A stretch of DNA of 64,000 nucleotides from an uncultured Chloroflexia bacterium (GCA_963726215.1 CAVSBU010000017.1:29265-93264), one strand, 5' to 3'; shown: positions 37,006 through 60,266, counted from the stretch's first letter. Made by a program: numbers and translations. Notes: generated by a model not told the origin, from the letters alone.

Positions 37006-37609
37006 TCCCCTCTCCCTTGACAAGCTTTGCACCAAAAGTGCCTCCTGTTTCAAAAGTCATGCAGTTGTTCCAAAAGTGACAAAAGGCATCATTCTTTGCC
37101 TCGTACTAACTTCATACCATTAGGAATCCGATTAACACCCATTGCTATAGAACCATTCTACTCCAACCTGAATACCTATAGGAACTCCAACAAATATATT
37201 CTTTTGTAAATTACAGACCTCCCTATTATCTGACATAACTACAATTTCATAGTCATTGATTCTAACTTTCGAAACTCCTTATTCACTGGAACCTTGCCAA
37301 ATATTTGAGATACCCCAGCTTTTGGTCTAAATTTATAAAGAAATCTGCCACTGACAGGTTCAGTGAATGTAACGATACCTGTAGGATTTGTATTAATATT
37401 GTAATCAATGGTTTACTCTCTTTAACTTCATAAATCGGTTTTTCCGCCCGTTCATCCCACCGGAAAATATCTAACCTAAAACCACTCGCTGTAAATACAA
37501 GTGGAAAAAACGGTAAGCCAGAACTAAAGGAAAGGGAACACCAAAGAAATCATTGTGCCGAGATTAACATTCATATTCTGTCTCCTATCCCAAAAGTCAG
37601 TAGCAGTTC

Positions 37610-37803
37610 TTACAATTCCTTATAGGTAATATTCCAGTAATTGAGGTCTGGATGTTCTCTATGTTTTGATGCTATTTCTCCACCATATACAAGTTTGGCA
37701 TTTTCTAAATTCTCTGGTTCAACTTCAACTATCTTCGATCTTTATAGTCACATTTCTTACAGTGTGCCGTTAGTTCATACTTTTTCTTTGGTGATAATTG
37801 CAT
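37610..37803 (-). CDS. small hypothetical protein in the AT-rich islet (one frameshift)
   Basis: AAAGGAGAA lies 8 nt before ATG at 37803. MQLSPKKKYELTAHCKKCDYKDR continues in the next frame as IVEVEPENLENAKLVYGGEIASKHREHPDLNYWNITYKEL. I recognise no family. Confidence 0.25.
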
Positions 37804-37929
37804 TGATATTGTTCTCCTTTTTATTATTGGAACAGGGAAGTTAAGTCAGACTTTAATTCATCTAATGATTTTCTAGTGGCATCATATACCTCGGTATTTG
37901 TTCAAGATATCAGCTTCTAGTGACATAAT

Positions 37930-38457
37930 TTATCCACCCAGTGCCTGAATTATAGCGCTATTAAATACCGGCAAATCGGACGGTCTGCGCGAGGTAATAA
38001 TATTCCCATCCTTAACTAAGGGCTCATCAACCCAGATTGCACCCGCGTTTTTGAGGTCTATTGCCACCGAAGGCCACGAAGTAAGACGGCGACCTCTAAC
38101 TATATCCGCCGAGATAAGAAGTTGTGGTCCGTGACAAACGGCAGCAATCACCTTGCCTAAATCATGCGCCTTTTTTACCAGGTCAATCATAGGCTGATGC
38201 AGCCGCATCTTGTCCGGTGCATAGCCACCGGGAATAATAATGGCATCAAAGTCCTCGGCTCTCACCTTATCGGCATCGATATCGACCTTGATTGTTGCTT
38301 TGCCTCTCTTCCCCTGATAGCTTGTCTGAGAGCCGCTGCCGACGATAAATATCTGAGCACCGGCTTCCTTCATCGCCTTTAAAGGCTCCGTCAGTTCAAC
38401 ATCTTCAAAATCTTGCTCTGCCAGTATGGCAACACGCTTTCCCTTTAATGACATCAT
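37930..38457 (-). CDS. DJ-1/PfpI-family protein (type 1 glutamine amidotransferase-like)
   Basis: 175 aa. The nucleophile elbow AAVCHGPQLLISA, and IIIPGGYAPD. Confidence 0.85.
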   Translation of the reverse strand: MMSLKGKRVAILAEQDFEDVELTEPLKAMKEAGAQIFIVGSGSQTSYQGKRGKATIKVDIDADKVRAEDFDAIIIPGGYAPDKMRLHQPMIDLVKKAHDLGKVIAAVCHGPQLLISADIVRGRRLTSWPSVAIDLKNAGAIWVDEPLVKDGNIITSRRPSDLPVFNSAIIQALGG

Positions 38458-52757: not shown

Positions 52758-54877
<2,120 letters not shown>

Positions 54878-54916: not shown

Positions 54917-54965
54917 CAATCCCCTCTCCCCTTTGAAGTAGTGCCGTGCATAATGTTATGTCAAT
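54917..54965. repeat. left inverted repeat bounding the low-GC island
   Basis: CAATCCCCTCTCCCCTTTGAAGTAGTGCCGTGCATAATGTTATGTCAAT. Its reverse complement matches 59438-59487 at about 41 of 50 positions, including an exact 22-mer ATTGACATAACATTATGCACGG. Confidence 0.7.
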
Positions 54966-55089
54966 GTGTACAAGGAAGCGTGGTTAAATAAAATATTAAA
55001 ACAAACCTATAGTTAAGCAATAATAAGGCAAACTTGAATTATCTACGGAGCATTTGGTTATACAGATCAGAGTACTATTAATTTAAGTA

Positions 55090-55481
55090 TTAGGTGGCAG
55101 CATCCACCAAATCTTTCAAGAAGGCGATTAAATTTTCTTGCCTGATTTTGTTGTAGCCGAGCCATTTGTAAGTATCATGTTCTGAGGGATCAGGATAACT
55201 TCTCCGGCTATATATTTGCAGAGGTATATGATTGGAAAATTTGCCGCTTTGGCAATTGGTCGCGGTTTGCATATATATGGATAACACGAGCTATCTCGAT
55301 TATTAATCCAGTTTCCTCTTTTACTTAGAGAGATCGCTTCCTCCATGGTCTCACCTGCTTTAACTATTCCACCTGGCACATCCCATTTAAGAGGCATATA
55401 TGTGTTGGATTTTGAACGTCTGGTAATCAAATATTTACCTTTTCTTTCGATAAGTGCATGTCCTGCTACGAAGAATTTCAT
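55090..55481 (-). CDS. NUDIX hydrolase (two frame changes)
   Basis: MKFFVAGHALIERKGKYLITRR...WDVPGGIVKAGETMEEAIS, then in the next frame VKEETGLIIEIARVIHIY (completing the Nudix box Gx5Ex7REUxEExGU). The third frame reads DPSEHDTYKWLGYNKIRQENLIAFLKDLV. Confidence 0.75.
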
Positions 55482-55671: not shown

Positions 55672-56835
55672 CTGAATAATAAGACTCCCAAAATACTAAG
55701 TGCCGAATACGCCACCTTTAGACAAGACGTACAGGATTATTTTACGAACGAAGTGCTTAAAGAGCATTCTTTAGTCATATTTGATCCTATGGCAGGCACG
55801 GCTCCATTAATACCCTTCATTGAAACACATGGTTACAAAGCTTATCTAAATGATATTCAGGCCTCCACTTCTATGTTAATAGAGCAAAAACATACCGAGT
55901 ATTCAAATGTTACAGTAAACATGGTTATGATTGGTTCCTTCAACAGCTGCTTAATTGCCTGTCTCCGCTAAAAGGAGAAAAGCTTTGTATCTCGGATAAA
56001 TGGATAAGTGACAATATACTCAATAATCTTATCGAAGCCTGGAAGGCTATTGGTACCTATGAAGAAGATGTCCAAACACTTTTGAGAGCTGCACTCATAG
56101 TATGTGTACGGTCTTTTTCTTCCATTACCAAATCAAAGAATCCTACTTGGCCAAAGCTTGGCGGAGTCTCATCAAATAAAGATTTTATGGAGATCGCATC
56201 TGACAGTTTGACAAGGTTTGATGAATATTATCTCTATAGTTACAAATCAAGTGAAAGGGAACCAAAACAAATCTCTCGAGAAGGTGAATGTATCTTTACC
56301 ATTCACGATGCAGCCGAACTGACCCTACCAGAGAAAGTTGACCTTATTTTTACATCCCCACCATACTGCAATAGATTGGATGGATTTACTCAATATAGCC
56401 CAGAAAACTACTTTCTATCTGCCATTAACGGTACGACTTGCAAAATGAATTTAATTGGCACCGTCAGAGTGAAGGAATATCAGACTTTCGAGGAAGATTT
56501 CGACTATTTAATTACAAATTCTGAATATGCTAAATATTTATTAAGTAGAATAAAACAATCTTCGGCTCCAGATGATCCGGCATATTATCTCAAATATTAT
56601 ACGCGTTACTTCGCCAAATTGTGCAGCGTCGTTATTAAAAGTGTGGAATTGTGTACCAAGTGGCAAATTTTATATTGTCTTACAAGATAACATACATAGA
56701 GGACAGATCATAGAGATTGATAAAATAATCGAGGAGATATTATCACTCAATAAATCGGCATGCTGCCATACTCCAAAGTTGGGAAAAGGCATCATTTGGG
56801 ATCAAGAAATATTTCTCGAGAACATGCATTTGTAA
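55672..56835 (+). CDS. SAM-dependent methyltransferase with motif I ... TRD ... SPPY order (DNA N4-C/N6-A type), two or more frame changes; start uncertain
   Basis: LVIFDPMAGTAPL (motif I-like), then about 190 aa, then VDLIFTSPPYCNRLD (motif IV). The C-terminal fragment GKFYIVLQDNIHRGQIIEIDKIIEEIL is in a third frame. No restriction endonuclease lies nearby. Confidence 0.65.
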
Positions 56836-56975
56836 AACCGCGCCATCTAGAGAAATTGTTGGTGTTTTGGAAATGATAATTGAAAAAGAATATGACTGCG
56901 GTACTCTTCAATACGATACTCTAAAACATCGTTTCTTCTTATATTCCTAAAAATGGAAGGGCTGCTATTCCTTAT

Positions 56976-57821
56976 TTGGAAACCCCAGTTTTATTGAACC
57001 TGTATCTTACTATGAACTGCAATTTATCTTGTAGTCATTGCGTAACCAAGGATTTTAGTCCGCAAACAGATTTACTCATTACAAAGCAAATATTGGACTG
57101 GATCAATAACTCTCCTTTTATTGTAATTGTCATCACTGGCGGTGAGCCACTACTCACTGAATATGAGGATGATTTAATTAGGCTTTTGACTCAGGTCAAA
57201 CAAAAAGGCCTAATTGTTGATACTAATGGCACTATTTTGCCAAGTGAAAAGGCAATAAATACTTTTCGAGATACTGATACTTTAGTGCGTATTTCTTGGG
57301 ATTCTGCTAGGCCTCAGGACGAAATATTCTTTCGCCACGTAAAAGCTGATACAAAAAGGAATTTGTCCCATAACTTAAAGTTCTATGAAAAAAAGATTGG
57401 CACGATACAGTACCTTCATGCCCAAGGTATTAATGTTGCTGTTCAAAGCGTTATTCATACACATAATAAGGAATCAATTGTTAATTTAATTCCTCTTTTA
57501 CACAAATATTCAATTAAGCAATGGTATATTCAAAGATTCATACCATCATATATGGCAAGTGATAGCAAGTTCAGTTTAAAATATGGTGAATTCGATAAAG
57601 TCGCGTCCCGGCTTAACAAATTAAGTGGACAATACAATATCGAGTGTATTATTAAAAAAGATCGTCGGCATAATTCAGTCGTTCAATTAATAGGAGAAGG
57701 GCTACTATATACACAAGGCAACAAACCCAAGGAAAAGATTAAGCTCGGGGAAATAGGAACAGAAATAAAATACTTTTATCGAGTTAGCTCCGCAGATATG
57801 CGAGAACGATATTATGTCTGA
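56976..57821 (+). CDS. radical SAM enzyme, single [4Fe-4S] cluster, viperin/MoaA-like fold
   Basis: MNCNLSCSHC (CX3CX2C), VITGGEPLL, IVDTNGTIL, VRISWDS, VAVQSVIHTHN, and QWYIQRFIP. Only one further Cys is present, so there is no SPASM or auxiliary cluster. The start is TTG at 56976, or ATG at 56873 (MIIEKEYDCGTLQYDTLKHRFFLY) if one inserted base near 56940 is removed. Confidence 0.8.
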   Translation: METPVLLNLYLTMNCNLSCSHCVTKDFSPQTDLLITKQILDWINNSPFIVIVITGGEPLLTEYEDDLIRLLTQVKQKGLIVDTNGTILPSEKAINTFRDTDTLVRISWDSARPQDEIFFRHVKADTKRNLSHNLKFYEKKIGTIQYLHAQGINVAVQSVIHTHNKESIVNLIPLLHKYSIKQWYIQRFIPSYMASDSKFSLKYGEFDKVASRLNKLSGQYNIECIIKKDRRHNSVVQLIGEGLLYTQGNKPKEKIKLGEIGTEIKYFYRVSSADMRERYYV

Positions 57822-57836
57822 ATGGAGGTAATTAAT

Positions 57837-58799
57837 ATGAGTACTGTTACGCCCAGAAAAATAAAAGACTGGTGTCAAATATTCGCGGATATTTATATTA
57901 GCCCTGATTCAAATAGAACACCGGAGCAAATGTGGATTGCAGTTGTTGCGCATTCAAGTACTATAGGAGAATGTGTGAGAAGATATTTTTTCAGTGATTT
58001 AATGACGGCTGCTTCACATGCTTTTTGTTGGTTATGCAGTTTTATAAATAGGTGTAACACATTAGAAAGTGACAATATTTTTTCATTCTCAGATTCTCTT
58101 TGCGAGATAGTTTCACTCAAATATCCTTTAGTTTGTGGTCATTGCGAGGAAGCCAAGTGTCACTGCTCACCTATTGAAATAGATAAGAAAAAAGATAAGT
58201 CCGCTAGATATGGTAATCTACTGAAAAAATGGGAAGGGGTTATCCAAGCAACCAGAGAATATTCTATTGATAACTGGAAATATGCTTTCAGAGAAATTTT
58301 CGGCGGTCAACTTCAAATTATGACCTTGGAAACTATTGGCTTTCACTTTCTCGAAGAGGTTGGAGAAGGAGCTGTAGCAGTCCGGCAACTAAGTCAGTTT
58401 AATCGTGTAATTGATAAATTCAAAGATATAAGCGCGGAATTTTTACGTGAATTATCTACAGTAAAAGGTATAGCTAACGAATATATAAAGGATGAATATA
58501 AGGAATTTAGAGAGGAAACAACTAGCGGTAAAAAACCAGATATTGATTACACCTCAATAGACCAAAAGGTAATAAAATGGAGGATAGTAGATGCGAAATG
58601 CAATATGGTAATCGAAATAGCTGATACGTTTTCGTGGTTTTGTTCACTCTTGAATAAACTTGATAATATCACGGAAAGCTCAGGATTTGAAGCCTTATCA
58701 TTAGAGAACCAGCTTAATAAGGTGTACTTTGAAGGAGATGTTGTTGCACATTGCCCTACCTGTAAAAGTAAATCTTGTTCCTGCGTTTTCTTTTCTTGA
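57837..58799 (+). CDS. tandem MazG-like (all-alpha NTP pyrophosphohydrolase) protein with two CxxC-x4,5-CxC motifs
   Basis: ATG at 57837 lies 8 nt after GGAGG. The second half has FHFLEEVGEGAVAVRQL and MVIEIADTFSWFCSLLNKL (EExxE...ExxD) and ends in CPTCKSKSCSC. The first half is a degenerate copy (AASHAFCWLCSFINRC...CGHCEEAKCHC). Confidence 0.6.
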   Translation: MSTVTPRKIKDWCQIFADIYISPDSNRTPEQMWIAVVAHSSTIGECVRRYFFSDLMTAASHAFCWLCSFINRCNTLESDNIFSFSDSLCEIVSLKYPLVCGHCEEAKCHCSPIEIDKKKDKSARYGNLLKKWEGVIQATREYSIDNWKYAFREIFGGQLQIMTLETIGFHFLEEVGEGAVAVRQLSQFNRVIDKFKDISAEFLRELSTVKGIANEYIKDEYKEFREETTSGKKPDIDYTSIDQKVIKWRIVDAKCNMVIEIADTFSWFCSLLNKLDNITESSGFEALSLENQLNKVYFEGDVVAHCPTCKSKSCSCVFFS

Positions 58800-58828
58800 C
58801 ACATTATATATGGAAGAGGAGATATATA

Positions 58829-59389
58829 ATGAAAAAGGTAAATGCCCATAACCAAAGACCAACAAGATTCGAGAATTATTTAAACCGAGCAAAGGTCGCT
58901 TCAGAAAGAAGCACGTGTTTAAGGCGAAGAGTAGGGGCCATAATTGTAAAGGGCGAAATAGAGCTGAGTTCGGGCTATGTGGGATCACCAAGAGGGGGTA
59001 CCCACTGTATTGATATAGGGAAATGTCTGAGACGGGAACTTGGAATTCAGCCAGGCACTAGGTATGAGTTATGCCGAAGTGTACATGCGGAACAAAATGC
59101 CATAATAAATGCTGCAAGGACAGGCATGAGTATCGTTGATGGAGAAATGTACATTTACAGCAAAAGACTAGAGGGAGAGTATGAACAAGCCAATATTCGA
59201 AGTAAAAAAATCTACGGCCCATGTATTATTTGTAAGAAGGAAATAATTAATGCAGGTCTGACAAAAGTCCATATGTGGGAAGATGGTGTTGGTAAAAAGA
59301 CATACACTATCAAAAATATCAGAAATTTGTTAGATAAAGAAGAAAAAGAACGATGGCAAAATGATAAATTAGAAACCAAGAATAAGTAA
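58829..59389 (+). CDS. deoxycytidylate (dCMP) deaminase, ComEB/CMP-dCMP deaminase zinc-binding family
   Basis: ATG at 58829 after GGAAGAGGAGA. RSTCLRRRVGAIIV, CRSVHAEQNAI (HAE), and GPCIICKKEIINAG (PCxxC). 186 aa with no additional domain. Confidence 0.85.
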   Translation: MKKVNAHNQRPTRFENYLNRAKVASERSTCLRRRVGAIIVKGEIELSSGYVGSPRGGTHCIDIGKCLRRELGIQPGTRYELCRSVHAEQNAIINAARTGMSIVDGEMYIYSKRLEGEYEQANIRSKKIYGPCIICKKEIINAGLTKVHMWEDGVGKKTYTIKNIRNLLDKEEKERWQNDKLETKNK

Positions 59390-59437
59390 TTTAACGCTTA
59401 TATTTCCAATCCTATCTTTCCACTCTCCTAATGAAAT

Positions 59438-59487
59438 ATTGACATAACATTATGCACGGGGCTACTTTGAAGGGGAGAGGGCAGGGT
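59438..59487. repeat. right inverted repeat bounding the low-GC island
   Basis: ATTGACATAACATTATGCACGGGGCTACTTTGAAGGGGAGAGGGCAGGGTG is the inverted partner of 54917-54965. It ends 17 nt before the pth ATG. Confidence 0.7.
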
Positions 59488-59503: not shown

Positions 59504-60086
59504 ATGAAACTAATTGTTGGTCTGGGTAACCCGGGCAGAATTTATGCTCAAAACCGCCACAATATCGGCTATCGCTGCATAAATCATCTGGCCAAGCTCT
59601 ATTCTATCGAAACAAACAGACGCCAATGCCATTCTCAAGTCGGCAGCGGTAAAATAGCCGACGTTAAAGTCGTCCTGGCTAAACCTGTGACCTTCGTCAA
59701 TCTCAGCGGCGAGGCGGTTGGACCCCTGATGCGCAGATACAAAATCAAGGCAACCGACCTGATTGTGATTTATGACGACCTCGATTTGCCACTGGGCAAG
59801 CTCCGCCTCCGCCCCGGCGGCAGCGCTGGAGGGCACAAAGGGATAAAGTCAATAATCTCGGCTCTGGGGAGCAAGGACTTCTGCCGCATCAAGGTAGGCA
59901 TCGGCCGCCCGACCAAAGAAGATGGAACAGCAATCACCGACGAGGACGCTATTGTCAACTACGTGCTCAGCGACTTCACCCCCATGAAGAGATCAGTAAT
60001 CAAGCCCGCCATCGCCACAGGTGGCCAAAGCCATCGAGTCCATCCTGACAGACGGCATAACCGCCGCCATGAACAAGTTCAATTGA
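59504..60086 (+). CDS. pth: peptidyl-tRNA hydrolase (frame changes near 59985-60020)
   Basis: MKLIVGLGNPGRIYAQNRHNIG and DDLDLPLGKLRLRPGGSAGGHKGIKSI. The C-terminus is restored in another frame as VAKAIESILTDGITAAMNKFN. Confidence 0.9.
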
Positions 60087-60098
60087 ATGTGGGCTGCT

Positions 60099-60266
60099 CT
60101 ACCTTATGGCCAAGCCCAGATAGTACGGCCAGACGACCACAGCCAGTATTATTTTCCACCAAATCAAATTGGCATAACCAATAGTGAATAGCCAGCCGAT
60201 GAACCAAACAGTTCCAGCAAGGCTCGATGCGGTATGATGCACACTATGTTTGCTTTCTTCCATCAT
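60099..60266 (-). CDS. small membrane protein (hypothetical)
   Basis: Below the track cut-off. GGAGGCATTAA RBS. MMEESKHSVHHTASSLAGTVWFIGWLFTIGYANLIWWKIILAVVVWPYYLGLAIR has two hydrophobic helices. Confidence 0.45.
   Translation of the reverse strand: MMEESKHSVHHTASSLAGTVWFIGWLFTIGYANLIWWKIILAVVVWPYYLGLAIR

Follow-up and report, generated by a model that had tools for sequence, protein, structure and literature searches.

A conserved methyltransferase, radical SAM, MazG-like and deaminase gene cassette in an uncultured Chloroflexia bacterium, and its possible action on free pyrimidine nucleotides

A stretch of 64,000 nucleotides from an uncultured Chloroflexia bacterium (GCA_963726215.1 CAVSBU010000017.1:29265-93264, hereafter the window) carries a 4.5 kb low-GC island between ligA (stop at 54876) and pth (start at 59504). 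The island encodes a methyltransferase-like protein (M), a radical S-adenosylmethionine (SAM) enzyme (R), an all-alpha MazG-like protein (Z), a deaminase (D) and, divergently, a NUDIX hydrolase (N). The same gene order was found in about 50 independent metagenomic and genomic loci, from dozens of uncultured anaerobic bacteria and archaea, and the conserved unit is M-R-Z, usually with D, and with N in one clade. We tentatively favour the reading that this cassette specifies one enzymatic pathway acting on free pyrimidine, most likely cytosine, nucleotides, by which a modified cytosine-type nucleotide would be made or destroyed. The substrates, the order of the steps and the biological role are what we infer, the likeliest role being in conflict with viruses or mobile DNA. 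The genes lie in the window as follows.

55090 to 55481, minus strand: N, NUDIX hydrolase, divergent from the operon, about three frame breaks
55672 to 56873, plus strand: M, methyltransferase-like protein, three frame breaks near 55860, 56650 and 56760
56873 to 57821, plus strand: R, radical SAM enzyme, one frame break near 56930-56945
57837 to 58799, plus strand: Z, all-alpha MazG-like protein of 320 amino acids, intact open reading frame (ORF)
58829 to 59389, plus strand: D, dCMP deaminase of 186 amino acids, intact ORF

A first-pass annotation, made from the sequence of the window, had described R, Z and D as a trio on the plus strand separated by gaps of 15 nucleotides (nt; R-Z) and 29 nt (Z-D), and these positions and gaps all match. 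It had also placed the end of the methyltransferase gene 37-140 nt before R, which is incorrect: after frame correction M ends with TGA at 56871-56873 and overlaps the start of R by 4 nt (ATGA), as it does in related loci. R is translationally coupled to M and has no Shine-Dalgarno sequence of its own (no GGAGG), because the end of M overlaps its start. The GGAGG-type ribosome-binding site attributed to every gene is present for Z (GGAGGT, 7 nt upstream of the start) and for D (GGAAGAGGAG), but not for R. The trio is a real set, but the tightest pair is M and R.

The recurrence of the cassette was quantified by tblastn with the cassette proteins, in loci having enough flanking sequence. R was directly upstream of Z in 47 of 52 loci, M was present in 36 of 40, D was next to Z in 43 of 54, and N was upstream of M in 13 of 34. 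Homologues of the trio therefore occur together widely across bacteria and archaea, and the order N (minus strand) followed by M, R, Z and D was seen in contigs of both. Hosts include Bathyarchaeota, Methanobacteriota, Chloroflexota, Aminicenantes, Pirellulales and Thermodesulfovibrionales; four carriers were present in the GTDB representative genomes (Methanobacteriota, Pirellulales, Aminicenantes and an unclassified bacterium), and a metagenome scan with the Z profile yielded 80 loci. Clustering of all other flanking ORFs revealed no further recurrent family. Two fusions join neighbouring genes of the cassette, R with Z (P0335/L216) and Z with D (P0340/L217). Among the variants, a NUDIX gene stands in place of D in one Methanobacteriota lineage, and in locus L135 a P-loop protein precedes the deaminase, the pair weakly matching the N- and C-terminal parts of the anti-phage dCTP deaminase model.

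R is about 315 amino acids long, from ATG 56873 to the stop at 57821. The mechanically called ORF begins only at TTG 56976 because of the frame break near 56930-56945; the N-terminal 35 residues (MIIEKEYDCGTLQYDTLKHRF...), encoded upstream of that break, agree with the family consensus. The motifs reported earlier for R (CNLSCSHC, GGEPLL, DTNGT, ISWDS and SVIHTHN) are all present, as are those reported for D and for the second half of Z (below). R scored 49.5 bits against Pfam Radical_SAM, above the cut-off. Its best named matches were viperin models, aligned over nearly their full length: 62.4 bits (E 3.6e-17) with NCBIfam NF038283, which misses the equivalog cut-off of 180 bits, and 75 and 70 bits with the PADLOC models of prokaryotic viperins (pVips). 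The MoaA model TIGR02666 gave 48.2 bits, missing its cut-off of 284, and the NirJ, tungsten-cofactor maturase and MoaA models scored R only slightly below viperin. The R family comprises at least 120 homologue clusters at 42-60% identity, with a typical member of about 315 amino acids, and its invariant CNLSCSHC and TGGEPLL motifs are features common to the whole radical SAM superfamily. No conserved second set of cysteines was found in the family, and the test for the auxiliary [4Fe-4S] cluster of MoaA failed: outside CxxxCxxC, 13-14 of 16 sequences share a Cys at just two positions, neither of them invariant. The earlier prediction of a single-cluster enzyme is upheld; the assignment to a viperin/MoaA type was right as to the nearest named families, but both family cut-offs were failed, and R does not cluster with a housekeeping family. 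On these profiles R represents a distinct single-cluster family near viperin and MoaA, and is a member of neither. It is a basic protein, with an isoelectric point (pI) of 8.95.

Z had no match in any of four libraries (Pfam, NCBIfam, PADLOC and PHROGs). Its N- and C-terminal halves align with each other (hhalign probability 95%, E 3e-8), which confirms that it is made of two halves, as first proposed. The Z family includes 117 homologue clusters; E173, E174, E177, E260, D263 and eight Cys are invariant in 33 sequences. The second half keeps the EExxE...ExxD motif (EEVGE...EIAD in the window), and an invariant CxxC-x4-CxC motif closes each half. The AlphaFold2 (AF2) model is all-alpha with a predicted local distance difference test (pLDDT) score of 92. 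With the whole chain, Foldseek returned no match at E<=1e-3, and a sequence-profile search of solved structures gave nothing relevant. Locally, the fold matches MazG 1vmg (template modelling (TM) score 0.75 over the target, root mean square deviation 1.2 A, probability 0.84, E 4.8); viral proteins resembling nucleoside triphosphate (NTP) pyrophosphatases were matched weakly (E 0.11, probability 0.97), and further local or weak matches were to E. coli MazG and a dimeric dUTPase, the matched structures including 3cra and 2yay. The Pfam MazG model (PF03819, cut-off 22 bits) weakly matched two of the 33 members (best E 0.0038). The Z profile retrieved 648 relatives among 1.84 billion representatives, and proteins of a sister family found in this way pass the PF03819 cut-off (28.3, 22.9 and 22.7 bits). 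Z is probably a divergent tandem MazG-like NTP pyrophosphatase, and it looks active, since the MazG metal-binding motif is invariant and the predicted fold resembles that of MazG and NTP pyrophosphatases. The MazG-like label of the first-pass annotation is moderately supported, in part by transitivity through the sister family. Z is not basic (pI 6.5).

Members of the Z sister family (P0449/P0461/P0426) are fused to a TIR domain, a cytidylate kinase or a P-loop kinase, fusions that tie the Z superfamily both to domains of immune type and to the metabolism of cytidine nucleotides. Some Z homologues have neither M nor R beside them: L116 (712-2863) carries two tandem paralogues and L113 (7959-10659) a single copy; the solitary gene adjoins genes for a HIRAN-domain protein, a HipA-like kinase and a serine recombinase. 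At L102 (4714-11999), only a remnant of R is left upstream of a Z homologue, and the surrounding gene cluster is a different one, with DUF5131, a ThyA-like protein, a ThiC-family radical SAM enzyme, a SPASM radical SAM enzyme and Dcd; this cluster looks like another uncharacterised deoxypyrimidine-modification pathway.

By its sequence, D is clearly a member of the dCMP deaminase family. It scored 49.6 bits with Pfam dCMP_cyt_deam_1 (PF00383, cut-off 25) and 1.8e-26 with the PHROG dCMP deaminase; it carries the zinc and catalytic motifs VHAEQNAI (HAE) and GPCIICKKE (PCxxC), with a 17-residue insert ahead of PCxxC, and the nearest solved structures are the dCMP deaminases 2hvv, 4p9c and 1vq2. 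The first-pass annotation was correct in calling it a 186-residue dCMP deaminase and in stating that it has no kinase-like domain of the AvcD type: with the anti-phage dCTP deaminase model NF041025 it gave 57 bits (cut-off 400) and covered only model positions ~325-363. In one clade (L008 9982-11325, L096 4963-6300, L084 3870-5336) D is fused to a sugar-phosphate-binding domain of the SorC/DeoR type (Pfam Sugar-bind, up to 92.6 bits), which suggests that its activity may be ligand-gated.

N is a small MutT-like gene; its first ORF in the window scored 26.7 bits with Pfam NUDIX (PF00293, cut-off 21.1), and the Nudix box region is frame-shifted. Intact orthologues of 136-139 amino acids score 66 bits with NUDIX and align to the window by tblastn in two frames. 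In one archaeal lineage (L001/L002 5099-6077) the cassette is directly preceded by a gene for a second NUDIX protein, of 300 amino acids, which matches GDP-mannose mannosyl hydrolase (147 bits) over its N-terminal half.

M, of about 400 amino acids with an apparent start at CTG 55672, is 51% identical by tblastn to M of locus L004, in two frames and with internal stops. The window sequence has DPMAGTAPL as motif I and TSPPYCNRLD as motif IV, and D35, P36 and G39 in DPMAGTAP and T220, S221 and P222 in TSPPY are invariant in the family. M scored 14.8 bits with PF01555 and missed the cut-off (26.7), 14 of 26 members matching it (best E 1.5e-5); weak Pfam N6_N4_Mtase/UPF0020 matches were obtained for 14-15 of the 26. 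Nor did any family in NCBIfam, PADLOC or PHROGs match M above threshold. The AF2 model of an intact orthologue (P0262, pLDDT 88) has as its best fold match E. coli Dam (Foldseek E 2e-5, probability 1.0, with TM only 0.32/0.45), and small-molecule N-methyltransferases are also among the fold matches (E 2e-3). The layout is that of a class I (Dam-like) fold with motif I, a helical insert and motif IV, and the protein is strongly basic (median pI 9.3).

If these enzymes form one pathway, R would carry out radical chemistry on a nucleoside triphosphate via its single [4Fe-4S]/SAM site, Z would cut the alpha-beta bond of the triphosphate to give a monophosphate and pyrophosphate, and D would deaminate the cytosine ring of the monophosphate, giving a uracil analogue. 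The nearest named relatives of R use NTPs, since viperin acts on CTP and MoaA on GTP, and a deaminase of the D type needs a monophosphate as substrate. The order of the genes and of the fusions matches this chemical order (triphosphate, monophosphate, deaminated monophosphate) and thus fits a single pathway, as do the invariant catalytic motifs kept by Z and D. M would N-methylate the substrate or the product via its SPPY pocket and would be kept in a fixed ratio to R through the ATGA overlap, and the NUDIX protein would be an accessory hydrolase; the scheme leaves free the points at which methylation by M and hydrolysis by N would take place. Such a scheme would end in a modified pyrimidine nucleotide, in depletion of the (d)CTP pool, or in both.

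The cytosine theme had already been raised in the first-pass annotation. It gains from the membership of D in the dCMP deaminase family, from the Z-D fusion, from the cytidylate kinase fused to the Z sister family and from the SPPY motif of M, SPPY being the form that motif IV usually takes in N4-cytosine methyltransferases. The P-loop and deaminase pair of L135 and the ThyA-like and Dcd neighbours in L102 may provide a further link. The roles then given to M (a self-marker) and to the MazG-like and NUDIX proteins (sanitisers) were guesses.

In 17 of 18 loci the AT content of the cassette exceeds that of its flanking sequence, the difference reaching 20 points, and the picture is that of a horizontally acquired accessory module able to become stably resident. 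No member of the Z family was found in 2.9 million IMG/VR viral contigs, where only remote radical SAM matches were obtained, and no member of the Z or R families in INPHARED (50,697 phage records) or PLSDB (72,556 plasmids). An origin from a virus, phage or plasmid was rejected on the absence of the Z family from these three collections, and the cassette does not behave as an ordinary prophage nucleotide-metabolism block.

Many cassette loci sit among ribosomal and other housekeeping genes. When 115 neighbouring ORFs from 16 loci were compared with Pfam and PADLOC, most were housekeeping genes, and the defence genes were two type II methyltransferases and one type I restriction enzyme. Matches of neighbours to GajB and mad2 appear generic to UvrD-type helicases and methyltransferases and were set aside. 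Some loci adjoin restriction-modification genes, McrBC, a phospholipase D-family (PLD) nuclease, integrases or toxin-antitoxin genes. The enrichment beside known defence genes that had been proposed as a check is thus weak, with few restriction-modification genes among the 115 ORFs, and the argument from a 'defence island' was dropped, the neighbours of the 16 loci being mainly housekeeping genes. A role in defence is possible, and context statistics lend it no support. In four archaeal contigs (L056, L063, L068 and L071/L133) the cassette lies between the genes for rpL10e and KsgA; these neighbours are 55-79% identical between contigs and the cassette proteins 60-90%. The orientation of the cassette relative to rpL10e and KsgA is flipped between L056/L063 and L068/L071, therefore either the whole cassette was inverted or it was inserted independently at the same spot. 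This arrangement suggests that the cassette has long been retained at one locus in this archaeal group, although, given the flip, it may have been inserted there repeatedly.

In the window, the GC content of the island is 0.363, compared with 0.493 in the remaining sequence, which bears out the foreign composition first noticed there. The claim that the island is bounded by repeats proved equally sound, as the cassette is bracketed exactly by the two arms of an imperfect inverted repeat of 69 nt (77% complementary).

54922 to 54990, no strand: left arm of the inverted repeat, directly after the ligA stop and a terminator hairpin
59413 to 59481, no strand: right arm of the inverted repeat, shortly before the pth start at 59504

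The core of the repeat is an exact 20-nt match, and its 20-mers occur nowhere else in the window. The core was absent from 215 retrieved loci, and inspection of the flanks of eight other cassettes revealed no inverted repeat of this kind; the inverted repeat is a feature of the window alone and not of the cassette. A palindromic intergenic element that has been split, or an inversion substrate, could account for it. In a test for a transposon or integron, no recombinase gene (transposase or integrase) was found inside the island. A scan of the island for promoters and terminators gave matches at chance level, and an Rfam scan of the whole window gave no match. A second low-GC stretch (37006-37930, GC about 0.37) has no ORF of at least 70 amino acids and no Rfam match; it opens with the 11-mer TCCCCTCTCCC, identical to that at the left border of the cassette island, and may be a further insertion, or a remnant of one, at a similar site.

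About seven frame breaks affect N, M and R (about three, three and one, respectively). The essential ligA gene (52764-54876) is itself broken into five frame segments within 2.1 kb (frames 0, 1, 2, 0, 1), an equal density of about 2 per kb. Because ligA is equally broken, the breaks in N, M and R look like assembly errors, that is, indels and not decay. The C-terminus of pth (59504-60184) also appears out of frame, and with an apparent rate of about 2 indels per kb in the assembly, all ORF calls in the window are affected. One idea is that an unusual base modification in the organism contributed to basecalling errors.

Several observations weigh against a pathway on free nucleotides used in conflict with viruses or mobile DNA. 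If M were an N4-cytosine methyltransferase, its product would be undone by the deamination catalysed by D. The basic charge of M and R, and the Dam-like model of M with its helical insert, would suit a nucleic acid as substrate no less than a free nucleotide. R misses the viperin cut-off by a wide margin (62.4 against 180 bits), and when the R family profile was compared with the PDB, viperins, MoaA and the anaerobic sulfatase-maturating enzyme anSME were all matched at E 1e-7 to 1e-5. The assignment of Z to MazG is under the significance threshold of every single method. Both fusions are known from one representative apiece, and a lost stop codon could have produced them. Finally, the enrichment near defence genes is weak, and it is unusual for defence genes to stay, as the cassette does in one archaeal lineage, in the same housekeeping setting over so deep a divergence.

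In a bolder reading, the cassette is a cellular pathway of a new kind, in which the Dam-fold methyltransferase and the non-viperin radical SAM enzyme would jointly build a new modified pyrimidine, with its precursor pool controlled by a branch formed by the MazG-like, deaminase and NUDIX proteins. We regard this as possible and somewhat doubtful; the product would be an antiviral analogue distinct from the viperin products (3'-deoxy-3',4'-didehydro-nucleoside triphosphates, ddhNTPs) or a hypermodified cytosine or uracil in the DNA or RNA of uncultured anaerobic archaea and bacteria. A serious rival scheme, though on balance unlikely, places the chemistry on the nucleic acid itself (DNA, possibly RNA): M would flip and N-methylate a base, R would elaborate the methyl group or the base, and Z, D and NUDIX would exclude from the precursor pool the modified (d)CTP and (d)CMP that turnover sets free. 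Methylation followed by radical elaboration is known from wyosine synthesis (Trm5, then TYW1), and in mammals DCTPP1 and DCTD keep modified cytosine nucleotides from the pool. The best fold match of M is a DNA adenine methyltransferase with the same succession of motif I, helical insert and motif IV, both M and R are basic (pI 9.3 and 8.95), they are the tightest pair of the cassette (4-nt overlap), the archaeal lineage has kept the same chromosomal neighbourhood for a long time, and restriction-modification genes stand beside some loci. There is precedent for radical SAM enzymes that act on base modifications in DNA (PMC8989533). The R-Z and Z-D fusions, however, more easily fit one small-molecule pathway, small-molecule N-methyltransferases also appear among the fold matches of M (E 2e-3), and the cassette includes neither a nuclease nor a restriction partner.

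The remaining explanations dispense with a modified product or with function in this genome. It is improbable that the cassette only depletes or cleans the pool, Z and D (with NUDIX) converting dCTP to dCMP and then dUMP and thereby starving viruses of dCTP or clearing damaged pyrimidine nucleotides in slow-growing anaerobes, with M and R as regulators or unrelated genes. The Z-D fusion, the weak similarity of D to the anti-phage dCTP deaminase with the split kinase-plus-deaminase pair of L135, the replacement of D by NUDIX in one lineage and the SorC/DeoR-type sensor fused to D in one clade, which suggests a regulated activity, all agree with such a role. It nevertheless leaves the radical SAM enzyme and the methyltransferase without explanation, although they are the best-conserved partners of Z, have both kept their catalytic motifs and, in the case of R, are fused to Z in one representative. 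That the island is a decayed pseudogene cluster in this genome, which would be compatible with the other readings, appears quite improbable: the seven or so frame breaks in N, M and R are matched by the same density in ligA (about 2 per kb), so that assembly indels are the simplest explanation, Z and D are intact, and conserved residues are kept in every frame-corrected segment. Very little credence can be given to a viral or prophage nucleotide-metabolism block, or a remnant of a pre-replicative pathway, in cellular genomes. MazG-like proteins and dCMP deaminases are typical of phage deoxynucleoside triphosphate (dNTP) pathways (T4 gp56/cd, MazZ/PurZ), the cassette is AT-rich and island-like, and the L102 variant has DUF5131 and ThyA-like genes; against this, the Z family was not found in the viral, phage and plasmid collections searched, no capsid, terminase, polymerase or integrase gene is recurrent beside the cassette, and the flanks are often ribosomal or housekeeping genes. 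A pathway on free cytosine-type nucleotides is therefore the reading we retain, with the reservations given above.

To our knowledge, natural antiviral nucleotides are at present essentially viperin products. If the cassette makes a new nucleotide analogue, it would extend this small set and might also be a source of new chain-terminator or antimetabolite chemistry; should its target be DNA or RNA, cells rather than viruses would have a new enzymatic route to hypermodified bases. Carriers such as Bathyarchaeia, Methanobacteriota and subsurface bacteria have few known defence or epigenetic systems. M, R and Z are now defined as families, in place of their present annotation as 'hypothetical' or generic radical SAM proteins, and the compact unit of four to five genes, with intact orthologues available, makes synthesis and direct testing feasible. 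Intact cassettes are carried, for example, by Bathyarchaeota contig JAOZHR010000008.1 (L004, 2831-7125) and by the bacterial locus L008.

The view that the set is not a named system was borne out, as no described system was matched in PADLOC or in the literature. PADLOC-DB 2.0.0 did not recover the cassette as a system, with no above-threshold model for M and Z and generic matches for the others. Searches of full-text literature on radical SAM enzymes, MazG, dCMP deaminase, Nudix, methyltransferase, viperin and defence turned up no account of the gene set, and it is not covered by the report on Ophion (see below), a viperin-evolution preprint or an archaeal-immunity survey.

Compared with pVips, R is a single-cluster radical SAM enzyme of similar size for which viperin models score best, and both show sporadic horizontal spread. 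Viperins act on CTP, UTP or GTP and have the signature N-x-H-x4-CxxxCxxCF, in which R has D and V for H and F. R also differs in its score (62.4 of 180 bits), in lying as near to MoaA as to viperin when the PDB is searched, and in having a family-specific 35-residue N-terminal extension and a C-terminal RRHN...YTQG...RYY region. Whereas pVips are stand-alone or kinase-associated, R is embedded with M and Z (47/52 loci for Z, 36/40 for M), a P-loop gene being present only in L135. D shares with AvcD and NF041025 a zinc deaminase of dCMP-deaminase fold, the weak model matches and the split pair of L135; these are, however, single-protein systems with a kinase-like domain, whereas D is one of four or five enzymes and has 186 amino acids. 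The Z-D order recalls the phage pyrimidine pathways (T4 gp56 dCTPase-cd-gp42, MazZ-PurZ), where a pyrophosphatase likewise precedes a modifying or deaminating enzyme, but the cassette has no hydroxymethylase, kinase or polymerase and was not found in viral collections.

Like MazG, DCTPP1 and the integron iMazG, Z has EExxE...ExxD, a helical bundle and matches to 1vmg, 3cra and 2yay; it differs in being a single duplicated chain with one degenerate half and two CxxC-x4-CxC motifs, and in having no Pfam match of its own. M resembles the Dam/D12 class and N6_N4_Mtase in its class I fold, motif I, helical insert and motif IV (S-P-P-Y), and differs from them in falling below the Pfam cut-offs, in its conserved C-terminal QDNxHRG and HHxGLRN motifs and in its coupling to a radical SAM enzyme. 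Ophion, an anti-jumbo-phage defence system composed of radical SAM, PHP and phosphoribosyltransferase (PRTase) proteins, has been proposed to interfere with nucleic acids (bioRxiv 10.1101/2025.09.30.679545). It is similarly a multi-gene system built around a non-viperin radical SAM enzyme, and the partner genes of the cassette are entirely different. In conclusion, the cassette matches no described system; it is built of known superfamilies, and modules that modify or deplete nucleotides are already known as an idea.

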